DNA of 39,760 bases from a virus. Its lineage: Duplodnaviria > Heunggongvirae > Uroviricota > Caudoviricetes. The stretch is from the IMG/VR virus record IMGVR_UViG_2711768002_000014; one strand, 5' to 3'. The position numbers and the translations under genes were made by a program. A model generated the notes under the pieces. That model did no database searches, was not told where the DNA came from, and saw only the letters and a program-made list of their open reading frames with translations. Every line of letters begins with the position of its first letter. The stretch's first letter is position 1. Positions 1 through 15,736 of the stretch are shown one piece after another.

Positions 1-573
1 ATGTTTTGCGAAGAAAAAGTAGCTCAAATGGCTGCATACCTACTTCTTAAGCGAGGTGGGCGCATGGCATATCTGAAATTGATGAAGCTGCTCTATCTGT
101 CTAACCGCAAGTCGATTTTGAAGCATGGCAGGATGATCGGCGAAGATAGCCTTTACTCTATGAAATTTGGTCCAGTCATGTCGAATACGCTGAACTTGAT
201 TCGTGGTAAGGCTGAAGGTATTGGTGACTACTGGTACAACCTGATAGAGACGAACGGGCATGATGTGTTGTTGCGTTCAGATCCGAGGGAAATGGATGCA
301 GACGAGGTCTTTGATGAGTTGAGCCGTGCAGATATCCGGATTTTAGATGAAATCTATTCTCTGTATGGGCATATGAACCGATTTGATCTCGCAAACATGA
401 CGCATTTAGAAAGCGTTTGTCCAGAGTGGCACAATCCTGGCAATTCTCGTAAGCCTATAGACCTGAAAGAAATGCTGATCAGTGAGGGTAAAAGCGAGGA
501 TGAGGCTAATCGTATAATTGGCAAAATGGAAGAATCTCAGAAACTTAAGGAATTTTCTTTGCAATTATCATGA
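1..573 (+). CDS. Panacea-domain (DUF4065, GepA/SocA-like) phage-associated protein; putative antitoxin
   Basis: 190-aa ORF starting at window base 1; motifs AAYLLLKRGG, YLKLMKLLYL and FGPV resemble remembered DUF4065 signatures; stop overlaps the next ORF start (ATGA at 570-573). Confidence 0.5.
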   Translation: MFCEEKVAQMAAYLLLKRGGRMAYLKLMKLLYLSNRKSILKHGRMIGEDSLYSMKFGPVMSNTLNLIRGKAEGIGDYWYNLIETNGHDVLLRSDPREMDADEVFDELSRADIRILDEIYSLYGHMNRFDLANMTHLESVCPEWHNPGNSRKPIDLKEMLISEGKSEDEANRIIGKMEESQKLKEFSLQLS

Positions 574-2538: not shown

Positions 2539-3363
2539 TCAGGCGGTGAAAGTACCAATAAAGGTTTCTACTTTGCTGTCTTTGAATTTCTCAACAAGCA
2601 GATCACGAAATTCGTTAGCCATTTCTTCCTGTACCGCTTCCAGCTGAATAATGCGCAGAACCAGTACAGGACGATCGCCAGTGATAATGCTGAGGCGTAA
2701 TTTAAACGGACGTTCTTTCAGACCTTCAAACGGAACGCATTTAAATTCAAATGCCACTGGCATAATGTCTTTGGTCTTCGCTTCGACAGACTCCATCAGG
2801 GAGCGTTTGCCGCTGAAGTCATTATCTTCAAAATCAGCGGTCTGGTTCGCTTCAATTGTGATTTTACGGATCGCCGCAGCCGCTTTGGTTGCCTGAATGG
2901 CGTCACCATTAGCATCAAAGCCCACAAGGTAGTCGGCCCAGTCTTCAATCCATTCTGCCAGTGACTTCTGGGAGTTACGCTCGCCATTAACAGACAACAG
3001 AGCAGAGAACGGAGCTGTCTTTTTCAGTTTGAGAGTGGCGGTGTTATCTGCGTGACCTGGTTCATCAATAGTACCCAGGTTAAGAACACTGACGGCACGC
3101 ATATTATCAGCATCGATAAAGCAGCGGGTGCCTTCATCTGCAAGATCTTTAGAATAACGAGTAAAGTCATCGATGCTGGCAGTGGAAAGCGCACCACGGA
3201 AACGGAAACGATTTAAATTTAATTTTTCCAGATCATGAATGCGGAAATTCTCAGGCAATGCCACAGCATCGGCACCAATCTTACTGATAATTTCATTAAC
3301 ACCCTGAGCAGAAATAAGGGCATGGATTTGATTAATTGCGGTTGCGTCTAAGTTCTGAGACAT
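2539..3363 (-). CDS. YfdQ-like (DUF2303) conserved prophage protein
   Basis: 274-aa ORF, same length and gene-order context as remembered CPS-53 YfdQ; typical GC and codon usage. Confidence 0.55.
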
Positions 3364-3428
3364 AATAAGTCCTCACTATATAAAGATATTCAGTGATGAG
3401 ATAAATAATCGGTTAATTAAGAACGATA

Positions 3429-3791
3429 TTAATGACCTGCTGCGCGGAGTTTTCCGTCAGGTTCACCGGCAAGAGTCAGTAATTGTCCCTGGTCTTCCTG
3501 CAGAATAGTCAGGCGACCACCGCGATTGACATACATCGGCGTTTCGGTGGTGTCTTCTTCGGAAATTTTCCCGCGGTTAGTCGGGCGAACATATGAGAGT
3601 TTGTGTTTGATTTTCACACGGTTCTCATCAAATGGTTCGATTTCCAGGTTGAGTGAGACCTTACCTTTGGTTTTCGTGTTCATCACACCGGAAGCGACTT
3701 CACTGAGAACTGCGCCGATTTTGGTTTCAAATACGCCGCCGTCCAGCTCCCCAATAAATGCCTGCACATCAGTACTGCGTTCGCTAGCCAT
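3429..3791 (-). CDS. YfdP-like conserved prophage protein (120 aa)
   Basis: ATG at 3789-3791 (minus) preceded by AGGAG about 8 nt upstream; the N-terminal extension in the track ORF is Cys/Arg-rich and unlikely to be coding. Confidence 0.5.
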   Translation of the reverse strand: MASERSTDVQAFIGELDGGVFETKIGAVLSEVASGVMNTKTKGKVSLNLEIEPFDENRVKIKHKLSYVRPTNRGKISEEDTTETPMYVNRGGRLTILQEDQGQLLTLAGEPDGKLRAAGH

Positions 3792-3811
3792 TTTGCTGCT
3801 CCTAATCATAT

Positions 3812-3975
3812 CGACCCTGCAAGGTCGGTTGGTTTCTCCACAAAACAGAGAAGAACACCTGCGGTGGCAGCCGCCCGGATGGATTTGGTTATGAGCCCGT
3901 CGTCCGGTGATGCTCTTCTCTGTTTTGTAAAAAGAGCGGTACCAGCCGGAAGCAAGTGTACAAACTGGTACCGCC
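3812..3975 (-). promoter_or_regulatory. structured 5' leader of the leftward transcript (multiple stem-loops)
   Basis: 14-bp perfect inverted repeat caaaacagagaaga (3841-3854) / tcttctctgttttg (3914-3927); 10-bp inverted repeat gcggtaccag (3945-3954) / ctggtaccgc (3966-3975); cgacc..ggtcg at 3812-3828. Confidence 0.3.
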
Positions 3976-4415
3976 AAAGCAGTGGCTGTTGTGGTGACCG
4001 GTGCTGATCTCCGGCTTGCGGTTATTTCAGACTCTCACGGGCGTTTAATTGCCCCGCCGAACAGCTCTTTTCCGCATTAGCTGCAATGTCTTTCGCGCAT
4101 CAGCCTGCGCATTCACCACAACGCTGAGAGCACTTAGCCAGTTACGGCACCACACTTTGTCGCGGTTCCATAAATGTCCTCATCGTTGCACCCTGGTCTC
4201 TTCCCAGGCGTCAAACCGAATCGCCACGCTGGTTAGGCGTCTTATCAGCATCATCATTGACTTGCACATTCCGGCTACCTGGTTTGTTTGCCCGAGCAAG
4301 GAGTGGATTGTCCCCTTTAACGTCCCCAGACCGCTAACGACGCATGTGCCATACGCCGTGTTACAACCAAATTTTGTTTAATCTTGCCTGTGCTGTGTTT
4401 CTTTTAGATACATTA

Positions 4416-6038: not shown

Positions 6039-6871
6039 ACAGTTTAACGGCAAATAACCGTTTGTCGCAACAGCTGGTGGTCAGCGTCGCTGAACACCTG
6101 TTGTTACGGCATGAATGCAGATTACCAAATCACCTGGCTGTAAGTAACCACAGAGAACTTTACCTGACTGTGGGGGGCGAGTTGTGCAGGAACTTAACCG
6201 CTGGTTTCGTGACGGAAGAGGACTTTATGTTCATGTTATTCGTTGGGAGCCAGAAACACAGCGCGTTATCTATCTTCGCAAAGACTACCCGCATGAGTGC
6301 TTTAGTCCTTTGTGGAAATTCAGGCGTGATTTTGTTGAGTGTGAAGGACCACCAGCACATTGATTCTGCCATTCCGGGACGTTACACTGTTCAGGCACCT
6401 TATAAAGCGGGTGCCGGGATTGGCGTCCTGGAATTGATCAAGGCGATATATGACGCGCCAGCGTCTTTTTTATCGTCCGCATTTGCTCACATCAAAGTTA
6501 TGGTGGGCTGGGCGGGGGCATCGAAAGATGCGCCGGTTTCCTTGATCACCGGTTACGCCAACCCCGTTCAGTTCACCACCAGCGAAATTGGCGTTTCCGG
6601 TGGTGGAAGTATTTCACCGATCAAGGAGGCTGCCATCATGGCTACTGTCCCAGCCCTCACTCGTCTGAATGATGAAGACTTACATAAACTCAGTTATGTA
6701 ACAACTGCACTACGTGCTCTGCGCAAGGTAACTCTTTCGGATCCGCAGGCACATCAGGTTCTGGTAGAAACCCTTCTTAACTTGCAAGCTGAACGTATTC
6801 GTCTGGCGGATAAGGCTAATTTTCATATTCACCGTCTCCTGAATATCAGCGGAGGGCATCGTCATGCTTAA
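6035..6871 (+). CDS. hypothetical protein; gene model uncertain
   Basis: 278-aa ORF with ATGA overlap to the upstream gene; contains an internal AAGGAGG-ATG (6623-6640) and an alternative frame that reads as protein between 6148 and 6363. Confidence 0.3.
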   Translation: MNSLTANNRLSQQLVVSVAEHLLLRHECRLPNHLAVSNHRELYLTVGGELCRNLTAGFVTEEDFMFMLFVGSQKHSALSIFAKTTRMSALVLCGNSGVILLSVKDHQHIDSAIPGRYTVQAPYKAGAGIGVLELIKAIYDAPASFLSSAFAHIKVMVGWAGASKDAPVSLITGYANPVQFTTSEIGVSGGGSISPIKEAAIMATVPALTRLNDEDLHKLSYVTTALRALRKVTLSDPQAHQVLVETLLNLQAERIRLADKANFHIHRLLNISGGHRHA

Positions 6872-7915: not shown

Positions 7916-8406
7916 TCATGAGTCTTTTGAATGAAGTTCAGAAATTCATTGAAGCCCATCCGGGGTGTACTTCCGGAGACATTGCGGATGCTTTTGCAGG
8001 TTACTCACGGCAGCGCGTTCTGCAGTCAGCAAGCAAGTTACGTCAGAGTGGGCGTGTGGCTCACCGTTATGAAGGAGATACACGCAGACATTTCCCACGC
8101 CTGACTGAGAGAGCGCAGGAGCCGGAACCACAACCAGTTCGTGAAACCAGACCTGTGCGCAATTTCTATGTCGGCACTAACGATCCCCGGGTGATTTTGT
8201 GCCTGACCCGCCAGGCGGAAGAACTGGAGTCCAGGGGCTTATACCGTCGTGCTGCAACGGTGTGGATGGCGGCATTCCGTGAAAGCCACTCCCAGCCAGA
8301 ACGAAACAATTTTCTGGCGCGTCGTGAGCGGTGCTTACGGAAAAGCAGCAAGCGCGCTGCATCGGGTGAAGAGTGGTATCTGTCAGGGAATTACGTGGGG
8401 GCTTAA
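7912..8406 (+). CDS. PerC-like transcriptional activator family protein
   Basis: C-terminal LTRQAEELESRGLYRRAATVWMAAF matches the remembered PerC signature (LE..GLWRRAA..W). Confidence 0.5.
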   Translation: MIMSLLNEVQKFIEAHPGCTSGDIADAFAGYSRQRVLQSASKLRQSGRVAHRYEGDTRRHFPRLTERAQEPEPQPVRETRPVRNFYVGTNDPRVILCLTRQAEELESRGLYRRAATVWMAAFRESHSQPERNNFLARRERCLRKSSKRAASGEEWYLSGNYVGA

Positions 8407-9059
8407 TGAGTAATAAATATTGCCAGGCGCTGGTGGAGCTGCGGAACAAACCAGCCCATGAACTGAAGGAAGTGGGCGATCAGTGGCGCACGCCGGATAA
8501 CATTTTCTGGGGAATTAACACCCTGTTTGGCCCGTTTGTTCTGGATCTGTTCACTGATGGTGATAACGCCAAATGTGCCGCTTATTACACTGCGGAAGAC
8601 AACGCGCTGGCGCATGACTGGTCTGAACGTCTTGCGGAGCTTAAAGGTGCTGCCTTTGGTAATCCCCCGTACAGCCGCGCCAGTCAGCATGAAGGGCAAT
8701 ACATCACCGGCATGCGTTACATCATGAAACATGCCAGTGCCATGCGTGATAAGGGCGGACGCTATGTTTTCCTGATCAAAGCTGCCACCAGCGAAGTGTG
8801 GTGGCCGGAAGATGCAGATCATATTGCTTTTATTCGCGGGCGTATTGGTTTTGAACTGCCTGCCTGGTTTATCCCGAAGGACGAGAAGCAGGTGCCGACA
8901 GGCGCTTTCTTCGCTGGTGCTATTGCTGTTTTCGACAAGACCTGGAAGGGACCGGCAATCAGCTACATCGGGCGCGATGAACTTGAGGCATGTGGTGAGG
9001 CGTTTCTGGCGCAGGTTCGCCAGCAGGCGGAAAAACTGGTCAGGGAGATGGCGGCATGA
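8406..9059 (+). CDS. phage Dam-type N6-adenine DNA methyltransferase
   Basis: NPPY catalytic motif (FGNPPYSR); TAATG overlap with the upstream gene. Confidence 0.8.
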   Translation: MSNKYCQALVELRNKPAHELKEVGDQWRTPDNIFWGINTLFGPFVLDLFTDGDNAKCAAYYTAEDNALAHDWSERLAELKGAAFGNPPYSRASQHEGQYITGMRYIMKHASAMRDKGGRYVFLIKAATSEVWWPEDADHIAFIRGRIGFELPAWFIPKDEKQVPTGAFFAGAIAVFDKTWKGPAISYIGRDELEACGEAFLAQVRQQAEKLVREMAA

Positions 9060-10598: not shown

Positions 10599-11594
10599 GT
10601 GACCGTGAGAGCACTACTGACCCCTGAAATTGCCCCGCGTATGGGGATCGTATTGTTCAGGCCAGGTTCAGAGCTGATGCCCCTGTTTATGCAGGGGCGT
10701 GTTCTGCTGGAGCCTGAGCCGGAACGTTATTCATCTTTCGCCAGTGGTGCCGTTCCGGCGGCATCACAACCGCTGGCGGATGATCCTGCCGTTCGGGCCG
10801 TGTTCCGCAATGAGGCAGTGATCCGTCGTGCTGGTGGCGTGGAATGTCTTGAAAGCTGGTTACTTCGTGAAAAAGGCTGCCAGTGGCCTCATTCCGACTG
10901 GCACAGCGAGAACATGACCACAATGCGACACGCTCCGGGCGCAATCCGTCTGTGCTGGCACTGCGATAACCAGCTGCGCGATCAGTTCACGGAACGGCTG
11001 GAATCAATGGCAACGGATAACTGTGCCCGCTGGGTGTTGTCTGTTGTGCGTCGGGATCTCGGTTTTGATGATAGTCACGTTGTGACAATGCCGGAACTGT
11101 GCTGGTGGCTGATTCGTAATGACCTGGCGGATGCCTTACCGGAAAGTGCAGCCCGTAAGGCACTGAGATTACCAAAGCCTGTTGTGCCGTCTGTCACCCG
11201 GGAAAGTGACCTTGTGCCTTCGGTTCCTGCCACCAGCATCATCCAGGATAAGGCAAAAAAGGTGCTGGCGCTGAAAGTGGATCCGGAGTCGCCGGAGTCT
11301 TTTATGTTACGCCCAAAACGCCGCCGCTGGGTTAATGAAAAGTACACGCGCTGGGTTAAGACACAGCCGTGTGCATGTTGTGGAAAGCCTGCTGATGATC
11401 CCCACCACCTGATAGGCCACGGTCAGGGTGGAATGGGTACAAAAGCGCATGACCTCTTTGTGTTGCCTTTGTGCAGAAAGCATCACGACGAGCTGCATGC
11501 GGATACCGTGGCATTTGAAGAGAAGTATGGCTCCCAGCTGGAGCTGATATTTCGTTTTATCGATCGTGCGCTGGCAATTGGCGTATTGGCGTAA
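10599..11594 (+). CDS. DUF968-family protein (YdfU-like) with C-terminal Cys/His cluster
   Basis: CACCGKPADDPHHLIGHGQGG...CRKHHDELH; immediately upstream of Q as in Qin; GTG start as given by the track, uncertain. Confidence 0.6.
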   Translation: MTVRALLTPEIAPRMGIVLFRPGSELMPLFMQGRVLLEPEPERYSSFASGAVPAASQPLADDPAVRAVFRNEAVIRRAGGVECLESWLLREKGCQWPHSDWHSENMTTMRHAPGAIRLCWHCDNQLRDQFTERLESMATDNCARWVLSVVRRDLGFDDSHVVTMPELCWWLIRNDLADALPESAARKALRLPKPVVPSVTRESDLVPSVPATSIIQDKAKKVLALKVDPESPESFMLRPKRRRWVNEKYTRWVKTQPCACCGKPADDPHHLIGHGQGGMGTKAHDLFVLPLCRKHHDELHADTVAFEEKYGSQLELIFRFIDRALAIGVLA

Positions 11595-11607
11595 GTGGAG
11601 AACGAGC

Positions 11608-12360
11608 ATGAACCTTGAAGCCTTACCAAAATATTACTCCCCAAAATCTCCAAAATTGAGCGATGACGCACCGGCGACAGGCTCAGGTGGTTTAACGATT
11701 ACGGATGTGATGGCTGCGCAGGGGATGGTGCAGTCGAAAGCACCGCTTGGGTTTGCCTTATTCCTGGCAAAAGTTGGTGTTCAGGATCCTCAATTTGCGA
11801 TTGAAGGTCTGCTCAATTACGCGATGGCACTGGATAACCCGACATTGAACAAATTGAGTGAAGAAACCCGGTTACAGATCATCCCTTACCTTGTGAATTT
11901 TGCCTTTGCTGATTATTCCAGGTCTGCGGCAAGTAAGGCTCGCTGTGAGCATTGTGCTGGTACTGGATTTCATAATGTATTGCGCGAAGTGGTGAAACAC
12001 TCCAGAAGCGGGGAATCTGTTATCAAGGAAGAGTGGGTGAAGGAACTATGTCAGCATTGCCATGGTAAGGGAGAAGTCAGCACAGCGTGCAGAGGGTGTA
12101 AGGGTAAAGGTATTGTCCTGGATGAAAAAAGAACCCGGCTTCATGGTGTGCCTGTTTATAAGATTTGTGGGCGTTGCAATGGCAACCGGTTTAGCCGTTT
12201 ACCAACCACACTGGCGCGGCATCATGTCCAGAAACTGGTACCGGACCTGACGGATTATCAGTGGTACAAAGGATATGCAGACGTTATTAATAAACTGGTT
12301 ACAAAGTGCTGGCAGGAAGAAGCGTATGCTGAATCGCAATTGAGAAAAGTGACAAGATAG
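11608..12360 (+). CDS. late-gene antiterminator Q (Qin QuuQ-like family)
   Basis: 250 aa; Cys-rich Zn-binding motifs (CEHCAGTG, CQHCHGKG, CRGCKGKG); GGAG upstream of ATG 11608; followed by a promoter and terminator. Confidence 0.75.
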   Translation: MNLEALPKYYSPKSPKLSDDAPATGSGGLTITDVMAAQGMVQSKAPLGFALFLAKVGVQDPQFAIEGLLNYAMALDNPTLNKLSEETRLQIIPYLVNFAFADYSRSAASKARCEHCAGTGFHNVLREVVKHSRSGESVIKEEWVKELCQHCHGKGEVSTACRGCKGKGIVLDEKRTRLHGVPVYKICGRCNGNRFSRLPTTLARHHVQKLVPDLTDYQWYKGYADVINKLVTKCWQEEAYAESQLRKVTR

Positions 12361-12391: not shown

Positions 12392-12420
12392 TTGCATTTT
12401 TCAAAAAATATGGATAAGAT
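12392..12420 (+). promoter_or_regulatory. candidate late promoter pR' (-35 TTGCAT, 17-nt spacer, -10 TAAGAT)
   Basis: Near-consensus sigma-70 hexamers about 30 bp downstream of Q and about 45 bp upstream of the terminator. Confidence 0.45.
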
Positions 12421-12463: not shown

Positions 12464-12490
12464 AAAAACCCGCCGCTGAGCGGGTTTTTT
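12464..12490 (+). terminator. tR'-like rho-independent terminator
   Basis: aaaaacccgccgctgagcgggtttttt: GC stem plus T6. Confidence 0.7.
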
Positions 12491-12639
12491 GTGCCTGATG
12501 TCTCATGAAACTATGAAATGGATTGGTGCGTTAAACATTTTTTCTTATTATCTTTTAGATTTTGGAGAGATGGTTAACGTCTGTATTCCAGAAACTCGAT
12601 GGTTATTTAATAAATTAGTTTCAATGATGCTTCTAGGTT

Positions 12640-13065
12640 ATGACTGTAATGAAAAAGGTATTAATAGCAGCGATAGGTTTTTGTTTAGTTGGTTGTGCAG
12701 GTATGAAATTACCTGAGTATTCGCAAGTTAAAGCAAGTCCGTATTATACAGATTGCCGTGCGTTTGCCATGGATGTTTATAAAAATGATGGATACAGCAA
12801 AATTGCGAAAACTACTATCCTTAGCATGGATGATGTGAAAGCTAGATATATTGTGACAGGGTGTGTAGTTGCTATGGGGAAAAACACTGTAGAGGAAATC
12901 AAAGCTGATCTCTCTGCTAAAGGGAGTTCTTTTGGGCTTATCAGTGGAGCTTGTTCTAGTGCGGCATGTCGGGTTGATGTAGAGCAGCAAATGAACGCTT
13001 ATGTACTTGGTAGTTATTATGCTGCAAATAAAAAATTCCCGGATAAAATGAAAGCAGAGTTTTAA
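12640..13065 (+). CDS. moron lipoprotein
   Basis: Signal peptide with lipobox (LVGC AG) after MKKVLIAAIGF; AT-rich island between two near-identical terminators. Confidence 0.6.
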   Translation: MTVMKKVLIAAIGFCLVGCAGMKLPEYSQVKASPYYTDCRAFAMDVYKNDGYSKIAKTTILSMDDVKARYIVTGCVVAMGKNTVEEIKADLSAKGSSFGLISGACSSAACRVDVEQQMNAYVLGSYYAANKKFPDKMKAEF

Positions 13066-13142
13066 GCAAACCTTGTTTTCGATTATATGTCGAAGATAAA
13101 TGTTAGTAACGGCATAATAAGTAAATATATAGCTGTGATAGC

Positions 13143-13166
13143 AACCCGCCACTGAGCGGGTTTTTT
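13143..13166 (+). terminator. rho-independent terminator (near-duplicate of tR')
   Basis: aacccgccactgagcgggtttttt; differs from the 12464 terminator by about one base in the stem. Confidence 0.65.
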
Positions 13167-13264
13167 GTACCCGTAAACTTGGTGCAGTACAGTAAACACG
13201 CTGGTGGTCGTGAATACTGACTTTTTATCTTGCTGGCTTTTTAGACAAGAGTTATTGGTATGTC

Positions 13265-13492
13265 ATGTTAACCAGAAGGGAAAAAGACATGCTAAAACAG
13301 CAAGATATGACAGAAACCGCCGCCGCAGTCCTTCATTTCTTACCTGCTGACAAGTGGGTAACGCCACGCATGATGACGAGAACTACCGGAGTAAGCGAAG
13401 CCCGGTGCCAGTTAATACTGACTCAGTTAGTTCTGGCGGGTCTGGCGAAGGATAACGGCGGGTACGGGAATAAATTCAGACGCTGCCAGTAA
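13265..13492 (+). CDS. small putative winged-helix DNA-binding protein
   Basis: 75-aa ORF (alternative ATG at 13289 with AAGGGA RBS); HTH-like segment TPRMMTRTTGVSEARCQLILTQLVLAGL. Confidence 0.4.
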   Translation: MLTRREKDMLKQQDMTETAAAVLHFLPADKWVTPRMMTRTTGVSEARCQLILTQLVLAGLAKDNGGYGNKFRRCQ

Positions 13493-13642
13493 TGGCGGTT
13501 TCCTGCTGTGAAAATGGGCGGCTGGTGGGTGTTGGTAGCACCTGCCAGCCATTCGCTCATGCTTACTGGTCACAAGCGAACCACGGCCCACTGCTTTAGC
13601 GCAAAAGCAGAGTGAGCCTACCAGAGTTACGCTTACTGATCC

Positions 13643-14695
13643 ATGAAAAATACTGTAAAAATAAACAGTGTTGATTTAATCAACGCTGATTGCCTGCATT
13701 TTATTCAGTCCCTGCCTGATGATTCCATTGACCTGATTGTTACCGATCCGCCTTACTTCAAGGTGAAACCCAACGGTTGGGACAATCAGTGGAAAGGGGA
13801 CGAAGATTACCTTAAGTGGCTGGACCACTGTCTGGCCCAGTTCTGGCGGGTGTTGAAACCTGCCGGAAGCCTTTACCTGTTCTGTGGGCATCGCCTGGCA
13901 TCTGATATTGAGATCATGATGCGTGAACGTTTCAACGTGCTTAACCATATCATCTGGGCGAAGCCGTCCGGACGTTGGAATGGGTGTAATAAAGAAAGTC
14001 TGCGCGCATATTTTCCTGCCACAGAGCGCGTTCTGTTTGCTGAACATTACCAGGGGCCATATCGCGGCAAAAGTGACGGCTATGCGGCAAAAGAAAGGGA
14101 ACTCAAACAGCACATAATGGCACCGCTGATATCGTATTTCAGGGATGCTCGTGCCGAACTGGGTATAACGGCAAAACAAATTGCCGAAGCCACAGGTAAG
14201 AAAAATATGGTTTCCCACTGGTTTGGTGCCAGTCAGTGGCAGTTGCCGAATGAGGCTGACTATCGGAAGTTACAGGCACTGTTTTCCCGTATAGCGGCAG
14301 AGAAGTTTCAGGAACAACAACTGGAACAACCACACCACCAGCTGGTGGCATCTTATGATTCACTGAATCGTAAATATTCTGAATTGCTGGATGAGTTTAA
14401 ATCTCTCCGGCGCTATTTCTCCGTATCAGTCTCCGTGCCTTATACCGATGTCTGGATGCATAAACCCGTTCAGTTCTACCCGGGGAAACATCCGTGTGAG
14501 AAACCGGCGGATATGCTCAGGCAAATAATCAATGCCAGTAGTCGACCAGGTGATCTGGTTGCTGATTTTTTTATGGGATCCGGTTCCACAATAAAAGCAG
14601 CAATGGCGCTGGGGCGTCGGGCCTTAGGTGTTGAGCTTGAGTCAGAGCGGTTTAATCAGACAGTGAAAGAGATAAACGAGCTGGTGGGGAAATAA
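13643..14695 (+). CDS. orphan DNA methyltransferase (N6_N4_Mtase family)
   Basis: DPPY motif (IVTDPPYF) N-terminal and FxGSGS motif ([12 protein letters not shown]) C-terminal; no adjacent endonuclease ORF. Confidence 0.85.
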
Positions 14696-14701
14696 TCTGG
14701 T

Positions 14702-14723
14702 GGCCACGTCAGGTGGCCTTTTT
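14702..14723 (+). terminator. rho-independent terminator after the MTase
   Basis: ggccacgtcaggtggcc followed by ttttt. Confidence 0.5.
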
Positions 14724-14762
14724 ATTTCCATTACACAGCACCCGCATCTGCGAGGTGGGGTT

Positions 14763-14912: not shown

Positions 14913-15135
14913 NNNNNNNNNNNNNNNNNNNNNNNNNNNNNNNNNNNNNNNNNNNNNNNNNNNNNNNNNNNNNNNNNNNNNNNNNNNNNNNNNNNNNNNN
15001 NNNNNNNNNNNNNNNNNNNNNNNNNNNNNNNNNNNNNNNNNNNNNNNNNNNNNNNNNNNNNNNNNNNNNNNNNNNNNNNNNNNNNNNNNNNNNNNNNNNN
15101 NNNNNNNNNNNNNNNNNNNNNNNNNNNNNNNNNNN
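14913..15135. other. assembly gap (223 N)
   Basis: Run of n. Confidence 1.
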
Positions 15136-15202: not shown

Positions 15203-15736
15203 ATGAACGCAAAAATCAGATACGGCCTGTCGGCTGCCGTTCTGGCACTGATTGCCGTCGGTGCGCCCGCGCCTGATATTCTCGACCAGTTTCTGGATGA
15301 AAAAGAAGGTAACCACACAACGGCATACCGCGATGGGTCCGGCATCTGGACCATCTGTCGGGGTGCCACGATGGTGGATGGAAAACCCGTTTTTCCCGGT
15401 ATGAAACTGTCGAAGGAAAAATGCGACCAGGTCAACGCCATTGAGCGTGATAAGGCGCTGGCATGGGTGGAGCGCAATATTAAAGTACCACTGACCGAGC
15501 CACAAAAAGCGGGTATCGCGTCATTTTGTCCCTATAACATTGGCCCCGGTAAGTGTTTTCCGTCGACGTTTTATAAGCGGCTGAATGCTGGTGATCGTAA
15601 AGGTGCATGCGAGGCGATTCGCTGGTGGATAAAAGATGGTGGGCGCGATTGCCGCATACGTTCAAATAACTGCTATGGACAGGTTATTCGTCGTGACCAG
15701 GAAAGCGCATTAGCCTGTTGGGGGATAGATCAGTGA
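15203..15736 (+). CDS. R: SAR endolysin (T4-lysozyme-like)
   Basis: N-terminal SAR segment [18 protein letters not shown]; catalytic E-8-D-5-T arrangement ([16 protein letters not shown]). Confidence 0.85.

Follow-up and report, generated by a model that had tools for sequence, protein, structure and literature searches.

A conserved structured element between a small winged-helix gene and an M.EcoGII-family adenine methylase gene in the late region of a lambdoid prophage

Introduction

M.EcoGII has found wide use as a tool enzyme, in chromatin footprinting, MadID and RNA labelling. Along with M.EcoGI, it is a prophage methylase of Escherichia coli O104:H4 C227-11 described by Murray et al. 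in 2018; it methylates adenines irrespective of the surrounding sequence, on DNA as well as RNA, neither of the two enzymes is expressed in the lysogen, constitutive expression slows growth, and M.EcoGII was proposed by its authors to be an anti-restriction device of the phage (PMC5778455). No extra motif from M.EcoGI or M.EcoGII was reported in the methylomes of C227-11, and the reason for the silence of M.EcoGII in its natural host has so far only been guessed at. In Mu-like prophages, com-like genes are found 5′ of non-specific methylases, as at Hin1523 of FluMu (PMC3299994). Here we analyse a stretch of 39,760 nucleotides (nt) of Caudoviricetes DNA (IMG/VR record IMGVR_UViG_2711768002_000014; the whole stretch is referred to as the window), in which a small winged-helix gene, a conserved structured element of ~140 nt and the gene of an M.EcoGII-type methylase follow one another in a region that is the late part of a lambdoid prophage.

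An earlier note on this DNA had singled out the methylase as an orphan enzyme preceded by a small DNA-binding-like protein and followed by a terminator of its own. Stated in this way, an orphan prophage methylase is an ordinary gene of an already characterised kind; the conserved structured element between the two genes was overlooked there and appears to be the sole part of the locus not previously described. We consider it probable that the three together form a late-operon cassette, in which a non-specific methylase produced in a Q-dependent manner is gated by a structured leader and an antisense RNA, with the winged-helix protein as co-regulator.

Results and Discussion

A structured element ends at the methylase start codon

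The gap between the small gene and the methylase gene is 150 nt long in the window, and the element fills ~140 nt of it (coordinates of this and other features are collected in Table 1). Gaps of 136-153 nt, all with the invariant block AAATGGGCGGCTGG, were found in nine loci or phages from six genera. A species-level genome scan by methylase alignment returned 80 loci, and in 62 distinct sequences, ranging from Escherichia to Proteus and Serratia, the element lies directly 5′ of the start codon. The structure that we derived by hand comprises a three-way junction, closed by helix P1 and formed with P2 and P3, followed by P4 and P5 and by a GATC tetranucleotide (13638-13641) that adjoins the start codon of the methylase. 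The nucleotides of the junction are invariant from Escherichia to Vibrio.

Covariation in the helices is extensive. In a MAFFT alignment, 79.8% of the cells at proposed pairs are paired, as opposed to 29-45% when the partners are slid; 17 pairs have changed on both sides, and 0 of 500 shuffles match the observed values. An alignment fitted to the covariance model has 81.5% of cells paired and shows compensatory changes in 31 of 40 pairs (149 cells), but such an alignment is biased in favour of the model, and the MAFFT values are the safer of the two sets. Identity within the leader is 0.60-0.85, compared with 0.37-0.58 at third codon positions of the methylase, and the leader is therefore under purifying selection. 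The covariance model hits each locus a single time, always on the methylase strand and just upstream of a start codon. It also recovers copies that its seed lacked, from one locus of Gilliamella and four of Vibrio (E-values between 3e-8 and 1.5e-4). Among viral contigs, a pattern scan identified 121 copies of the element, all but two of which (119/121) have a member of the methylase family within 250 nt downstream. Searches of Rfam 15 with 13493-13642 returned no match on either strand, at gathering scores or at E up to 10, and Rfam had none for the Vibrio-type upstream regions. Literature searches for the element sequence, and for reports of a leader or riboswitch belonging to this methylase, found nothing in the papers covered; the element and its linkage to the small winged-helix gene appear undescribed.

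These data bear on the suggestion that the intergenic stretch is not a functional RNA, and serves either as a recombination boundary of mosaic phages or as a DNA operator for the winged-helix protein. A mosaic junction does lie here, as phage SfV combines a 98%-identical methylase with a 51%-identical small protein; an Stx2k phage keeps the small gene and half of the element with a different gene downstream; and an inverted repeat that is invariant makes up the outer part of P2. What makes this a highly improbable explanation is the number of pairs with compensatory double changes, the excess of paired cells over the slid controls, a conservation far above that of synonymous sites, and the occurrence of the same architecture with different helix sequences in Vibrio, at 50-60% methylase identity.

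The Stx2k phage in question, phiSTEC1575-Stx2k (L010, 3501-4572), has kept the small gene but no more of the element than its 5′ part (the 5′ arm of P1, P2 and the start of P3), the methylase gene being replaced by that of an AraC-type regulator upstream of tRNAs and stx2k. This arrangement marks a recombination breakpoint inside the element. We also note a viral contig (L150) with two copies of the element ~3 kb apart, at 344-422 and 3330-3408 (-).

A number of other contents for the gap were considered and rejected. No tRNA or tRNA-like gene was found in it. A peptide encoded by either of two 35-amino-acid (aa) open reading frames (ORFs; 13492-13599 and 13508-13615) is at odds with loop lengths that vary by single nucleotides among relatives, and one starting at the invariant ATG of AATGGGC would in most sequences end at a TAG after seven codons (GTTGTAGCAC type). 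An N-terminal extension of the methylase would run into an in-frame TGA at 13637-13639. As read from the sequence, the spacing of a sigma-54-type promoter in the P2 region is unsuitable, and an extended -10 promoter at TGTGAAAAT, whose transcript would start inside P1, is disfavoured because P1 has two independent compensatory changes. Finally, the terminator-like hairpin over the stop codon of the small gene, which is stronger in most relatives than here, was not counted among the core parts of the element, since the Providencia/Proteus group lacks it.

The methylase falls in a non-specific family

The methylase matches PF01555 above the gathering threshold (145.9 bits for a cut-off of 26.7; E=2.2e-42; residues 29-341) and has the motif order of the beta class, with DPPY at residues 35-38 and FxGxG (FFMGSGST) at 309-316, in agreement with its description in the earlier note as an N6/N4-type enzyme. 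It aligns with solved beta-class enzymes such as M.RsrI, M.MboIIA and CcrM in the catalytic core only. With M.EcoGII, by comparison, it shares 281 of 349 residues (~81%) over the full length with two gap positions, the central region 160-237 included, and with Anc291, a reconstructed ancestor of the M.EcoGII clade, 310 of 348 (89%), these figures being approximate because both references are machine-read copies holding a few reading errors (that of M.EcoGII was taken from the supplement of PMC11551740). The approximate value for M.EcoGII agrees with the 80.6% identity of our methylase to the Stx2a-phage enzyme, itself 93% identical to M.EcoGII.

Anc291 methylates DNA and RNA, its RNA methylation being largely non-site-specific, and SUPREM, a more distant relative, is non-specific like M.EcoGII and Anc291. 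Bracketed by these three enzymes, the methylase of the window most likely methylates adenines whatever their context, which gives a probable answer to a question of specificity that had previously been left open. By sequence, it is an ordinary and widespread prophage member of the M.EcoGII-type family of non-specific adenine methylases. Its gene lies in the late region of a prophage; silence in the lysogen is known for M.EcoGI and M.EcoGII only.

The small gene encodes a predicted winged-helix protein

The longest ORF 5′ of the methylase, 13265-13492 (75 aa), had been taken as the small gene. The gene exists, but its start is at 13289 (67 aa), because all homologues begin with MLKQQDMTE, an AAGGGA Shine-Dalgarno sequence precedes this codon, and a 204-nt gene is annotated in RefSeq and phage records. 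Homologues are merely 48-60% identical with the reading frame retained, and the invariant RCQLILTQLV block varies freely at synonymous sites, features by which the ORF is recognised as a genuine protein gene. AlphaFold2, supplied with 31 sequences, predicts a canonical winged helix in the order H1-strand-H2-H3-wing (average predicted local distance difference test score 87.4), as the earlier note had surmised. The predicted structure matches generic small winged helices, among them Zalpha, the DNA-binding domains of IclR and TrmBL2 and the RNA-binding domain of SelB, with template modelling scores of up to 0.84 but E-values of just ~5e-3; in Pfam, MarR_2 and TrmB are matched below threshold, none of the matches is Xre-type, and the annotation of relatives is that of TrmB-family regulators.

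The recognition helix, RCQLILTQLV(L/M)AGL, is invariant over at least two allelic types. It is also the point at which the chimeric proteins P0052-P0057 are joined, their N-terminal two-thirds being of one allelic type and their C-terminal wing of the other. The small gene is found 5′ of the methylase in 109 of the 114 viral contigs with room to see it, and a winged-helix-like ORF, placed by sequence reading and having no Pfam match, occupies the same position in the Vibrio plasmid locus L074. Its recognition helix being invariant and its gene adjoining an invariant nucleic-acid motif, the small protein is probably a co-regulator that binds the invariant part of the element, as DNA or as RNA, and that is dispensable in some lineages.

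A late-operon cassette with no endonuclease

The cassette lies, as had been reported, between the Q antiterminator and holin genes. Its position implies that the methylase gene can be transcribed efficiently solely by Q-modified polymerase, from which we infer late-only expression. The terminator that follows the gene is indeed present, but it does not delimit a separate unit, as the gene sits downstream of a pR′-like promoter and of three terminators that would be read through with the help of Q. The second methylase of the prophage, also noted before, is of the Dam family (PF05869, 155.7 bits for a threshold of 28.1, E=1.1e-45) and corresponds to the RefSeq name "phage N-6-adenine-methyltransferase".

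This context is relevant to the possibility of a sequence-specific orphan methylase active in the lysogen, with an epigenetic or regulatory function and the small protein as its transcription factor. Regulatory orphan methylases such as Dam and CcrM are known, and the fold of the small protein and the TrmB-family annotation of its relatives would suit this function. We nevertheless regard it as very unlikely in view of the 81% and 89% identity to enzymes shown to be non-specific, the reported silence of the family in lysogens and its harmfulness when expressed, and the location of the gene behind three terminators in a Q-dependent late operon, with no sigma-70-type promoter called before the cassette. 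Of the two roles put forward in the earlier note, membership in the M.EcoGII family and a wide distribution among phages therefore support an anti-restriction role during lytic growth, as was suggested for the characterised member; they do not support an epigenetic role in the lysogen, which is unlikely given that M.EcoGI and M.EcoGII are silent there and harmful if constitutive.

The enzyme is an orphan in the sense that no endonuclease gene adjoins it: its neighbours encode a lipoprotein-like moron, the small protein and the holin, a PADLOC defence scan matched only the two methylases, and no nuclease was seen in the ~200 related loci looked at. The holin gene is interrupted by a run of 222 N (14914-15135), whose counterpart, in a genome identical over 13100-14760, contains the holin gene (essD) and a 351-nt YdfR gene and is ~194 nt longer, so that the run does not have its true length. 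To the proposal that the cassette is half of a restriction-modification (R-M) system or its remnant, with an endonuclease in the N run or elsewhere and the small protein as a C-type controller, we give next to no credence. The best PADLOC model for the methylase is that of a Type II methylase, and controllers are small helix-turn-helix proteins encoded 5′ of R-M genes, but the winged helix of the small protein is of MarR/TrmB and not of Xre type, the N-run counterpart carries no nuclease gene, and across the related loci, none of them with a nuclease, the small gene, element and methylase remain together between flanks that differ.

Over 13100-14760, several E. coli chromosomes are 100% identical to the window and phages Ayreon, mEp460 and cdtI 99.1-99.5%; matching DNA is present in SfV and in 1482 of 5426 complete E. 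coli genomes. The annotation of the cassette in Ayreon, mEp460 and cdtI is merely "DNA methylase" and "hypothetical protein". The order from Q to the holin gene, with the cassette in between, is retained in SfV, phiP27, Stx2a_1447 and in Hafnia, Morganella, Citrobacter and Klebsiella phages with different Q and lysis genes.

Which strand carries the function

The strand on which the element acts was approached through the non-Watson-Crick cells of its helices. Read on the plus strand, P2 and P5 have an excess of G.U over A.C (52 vs 14 and 81 vs 12, respectively), whereas P3 has 150 A.C, distributed over 7 positions, vs 5 G.U; P3 is therefore, on the minus strand, a 10-base-pair (bp) wobble-containing helix with almost no broken pairs. 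This minus-strand helix holds in 38 Enterobacterales sequences, in two patterns with differing wobble positions, and the Vibrio L074 copy, when paired by hand, fits it with wobbles at yet other positions. Helix by helix, stability favours the minus strand for P3 (66 of 67 sequences) and the plus strand for P2 (54/67) and P5 (53/67); of 62 sequences, 54 have the stabler junction on the minus strand, and in 45 the plus-strand form of P4-P5 equals or exceeds the minus-strand form in stability. The RNAalifold energies are -27.8 kcal/mol (minus strand) and -13.0 (plus strand), on sequence sets that differ. The extension of P1 favours the minus strand, where the invariant AAAT found 5′ of P1 reads as an AUUU run that follows the closing helix. 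Within the methylase ORF, at +16 to +21, a minus-strand TAnnnT hexamer (TATTTT, TAAATT, TATATT, TAAAAT, TATAAT and others) is retained in 95 of the 98 distinct sequences, even though six different pairs of amino acids are encoded at this site, and synonymous variation over codons 1-10 is 0.30, as compared to ~0.8 elsewhere in the gene. Selection on both strands is what would be expected of a leader/antisense pair such as CopT/CopA or ant/sar, and this is the reading that we prefer.

Several observations weigh against it. The strand evidence is contradictory between helices, and synonymous sites near start codons often vary little for unrelated reasons. No properly spaced -35 was found for the antisense promoter, a promoter and terminator scan of the minus strand over 13500-13760 called nothing, the run that follows P1 contains no more than 2-4 U, and it would be unusual for a helix that closes a junction to serve as a terminator. 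Of the 62 genome loci, 14 keep the element and methylase but lack the small gene, so that the gate does not require the small protein. To these may be added the approximate nature of the identities by which the methylase was placed next to M.EcoGII and Anc291, and the state of a pairing between the P3 loop and the GAUC before the start codon (loop to ribosome-binding site): it reaches at least 5 bp in 72% of sequences vs 13% with shuffled tails, but it is broken in Hafnia and in L038, relatedness inflates the 72%, and GAUC is palindromic, so we keep this pairing as a weak idea. A TTGATT/TTGACT sequence was rejected as the antisense -35: its spacing to the -10-like hexamer is just 14 nt, and it coincides in part with the codons of the conserved NAD protein motif.

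A serious rival to the sense/antisense pair, if in our judgement a rather unlikely one, is a sense leader that acts without antisense RNA, as a riboswitch-like or protein-binding aptamer by way of its three-way junction. It would govern how ribosomes reach the start codon, in response to a ligand (S-adenosylmethionine or S-adenosylhomocysteine being natural guesses), to the winged-helix protein or to the methylase itself. Transcription of the sense strand within the late operon is certain, every copy of the element ends at a start codon (in Vibrio, that of a Com-like ORF), and the invariant junction and the plus-strand G.U of P2 and P5 fit this proposal, as do the change of the pairing between 5′ tail and P3 loop from GUGA-UCAC to AUGA-UCAU in Vibrio and the methylation of RNA by M.EcoGII. 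It has to contend with a plus-strand P3 that has A.C at 7 positions and nearly no G.U while the minus-strand P3 is perfect, with the lack of a match to any known riboswitch class at E up to 10, and with an element that possesses neither a terminator-type expression platform nor a Shine-Dalgarno sequence to sequester, just GAUC.

Proposed mechanism

Under the sense/antisense model that we favour, the methylase would be transcribed only once Q lets polymerase run from pR′ through three terminators. Given that such an enzyme is harmful to the host, we propose that the cassette bears an extra gate at the start codon, where the element, directly 5′ of the AUG, would control translation. The gate would consist of the structured sense leader paired with a cis-encoded antisense RNA, predicted to start a few codons inside the methylase gene and to end past the three-way junction. 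In the lysogen, the terminators would stop stray transcripts, and the leader and its antisense partner would keep those that leak untranslated. Upon induction, the flood of Q-dependent late mRNA would outrun the antisense RNA and the methylase would be made, whereupon replicating and packaged phage DNA may become heavily N6-methyladenine-modified and resist many restriction systems of the next host. More tentatively, it is possible, although we would not call it probable, that the element represents a new class of regulatory RNA for non-specific adenine methylases, selected on both strands and operating with a winged-helix protein as a catch similar to type I toxin-antitoxin systems, from Escherichia to Vibrio.

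Organization of the locus and other features of the prophage

The moron gene is absent 5′ of the module in SfV and in Hafnia, Morganella and Citrobacter phages, and is outside the methylase module. It is flanked by near-identical terminators (…CCCGCC(G/A)CTGAGCGGGTTTTTTGT), as if it had been inserted with a duplicated terminator.

Table 1. Features of the locus and helices of the element (window coordinates)
Feature	Position	Strand	Remarks
Dam-family N6-adenine methyltransferase (second methylase)	8406-9059	+	early/nin-type region
DUF968/HNH protein	10599-11594	+	
Q antiterminator	11566-12360	+	PF03589
Candidate late promoter pR′	12392-12420	+	TTGCAT-17 nt-TAAGAT; assigned by position alone
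tR′	12467-12495 (from 12465 in one reading)	+	strong terminator just 3′ of Q/pR′; annotated at equivalent site in Ayreon
Lipoprotein-like moron	12640-13065	+	141 aa; signal peptide and Cys; phrog_4748, function unknown
Intrinsic terminator 3′ of moron	13143-13170	+	near-duplicate of tR′
Small winged-helix gene	13289-13492	+	67 aa; phrog_331
Terminator-like weak hairpin	13482-13499	+	over small-gene stop codon, then U-rich stretch
Structured RNA element	13504-13642	.	conserved
P1	13515-13519 with 13586-13590		closes three-way junction with P2 and P3
P2	13520-13531 with 13539-13550		
P3	13552-13560 with 13572-13580		
P4	13591-13597 with 13604-13610		
P5	13611-13617 with 13631-13637		
M.EcoGII-family beta-class N6-adenine methyltransferase	13643-14695	+	350 aa; intact motifs
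Two adjoining -10-like hexamers	13652-13657 (TACAGT), 13658-13663 (TATTTT)	-	methylase codons 4-7; candidate antisense promoter
Intrinsic terminator between methylase and holin	14702-14727	+	GGCCAC-GTCAG-GTGGCC (14702-14718) plus TTTTTATTT
P21-type holin	start 14763/14772	+	interrupted by N run 14914-15135; then lysozyme, Rz
Lysozyme	15203-15736	+	

Outside this region, 6395-6583 (+) matches Rfam above gathering scores with an isrK (6395-6471, 64 bits) and a C4 antisense RNA (6496-6583, 82 bits) in tandem, both overlapping the 5′ part of a gene annotated as Ash-family. They constitute a P1/P7-type antisense immunity module within a lambdoid prophage. At the prophage edge, the first gene of the window (1-573, +) corresponds to a RefSeq "Panacea domain-containing protein" and adjoins a truncated tRNA-dihydrouridine synthase gene, the likely integration site. 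Panacea domains are frequently associated with toxin-antitoxin pairs.

Comparison with known systems

About one in four complete E. coli genomes contains DNA matching the cassette, and a covariation-supported element and a partner protein at the start codon make the silence of the enzyme a testable matter. The closest characterised enzyme, M.EcoGII, resembles that of the window in its beta-class architecture, length (349-350 aa), ~81% full-length identity and prophage location, from which non-specific activity, silence in the lysogen and toxicity may be presumed for the latter. It differs in that the methylase of the window is another allele, nearer to Anc291 (89%), with a small gene of another allelic type. 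The Stx2a-phage copies that are 93% identical to M.EcoGII have the same upstream small gene and element.

The C proteins of R-M systems are likewise small DNA-binding-type proteins encoded just 5′ of a methylase. They are Xre-type helix-turn-helix dimers of ~80 aa that time the endonuclease, whereas the small protein of the window has a predicted winged helix instead of the Xre-type fold, and no endonuclease accompanies it. The antisense side of our proposal is reminiscent of P22 sar/ant, lambda OOP/cII, hok/sok and CopA/CopT, in which, as proposed here, a structured RNA from the opposite strand lies over the translation start of a harmful gene and complementary stem-loops are selected on both strands. 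Unlike in these cis-antisense systems, the antisense RNA of the window is predicted only, its promoter being a -10-like hexamer, and it has no Rfam or sequence relation to their RNAs.

The gating theme is known from Mu com/mom and com-like genes; the parts are different here. In the Vibrio plasmid locus L074, a winged-helix-like ORF (2291-2587) is followed by the element (2731-2870), a Com-like ORF (2862-2987) and the methylase (2971-4047), an order shared by L072, L073 and L086. The Com-like ORF starts at the final AUG of the element and overlaps the methylase start; its product is a zinc ribbon of 41 aa (CxxC..CxxC) that matches PF10122 below the cut-off (E=0.0016) and phrog_6417, "translational regulator" (E=3e-5). 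Other homologues from Vibrio, Aliivibrio and Psychromonas (L075, L077-L081, L083, L085 and L087-L089; 50-56% identity) are without the element; they share instead another conserved motif ~60-170 nt 5′ of the methylase match, ATGCCTTGAGTACCTGAGACCCA … GGAGAGGAAGCA … hairpin … TATTCAAGGCTCT, with long-range complementarity. Three of these loci (L078, L079 and L085) returned nothing from Rfam at gathering scores.

The likeness to Mu com-mom is that of a late, host-toxic, broad-spectrum DNA modification placed under a dedicated post-transcriptional gate at the start codon. The window has no Com-type zinc ribbon immediately 5′ of the methylase or overlapping it and encodes instead a winged-helix protein upstream of the RNA element; the Mu RNA is a single hairpin where the element here is a 140-nt multi-helix structure, and the methylases of Mu-like prophages are alpha-class enzymes unrelated to the one described here. 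If the proposed mechanism is true, the cassette would be a second case, beside Mu com/mom, of a post-transcriptional lock placed by a phage on a dangerous DNA-modifying enzyme.

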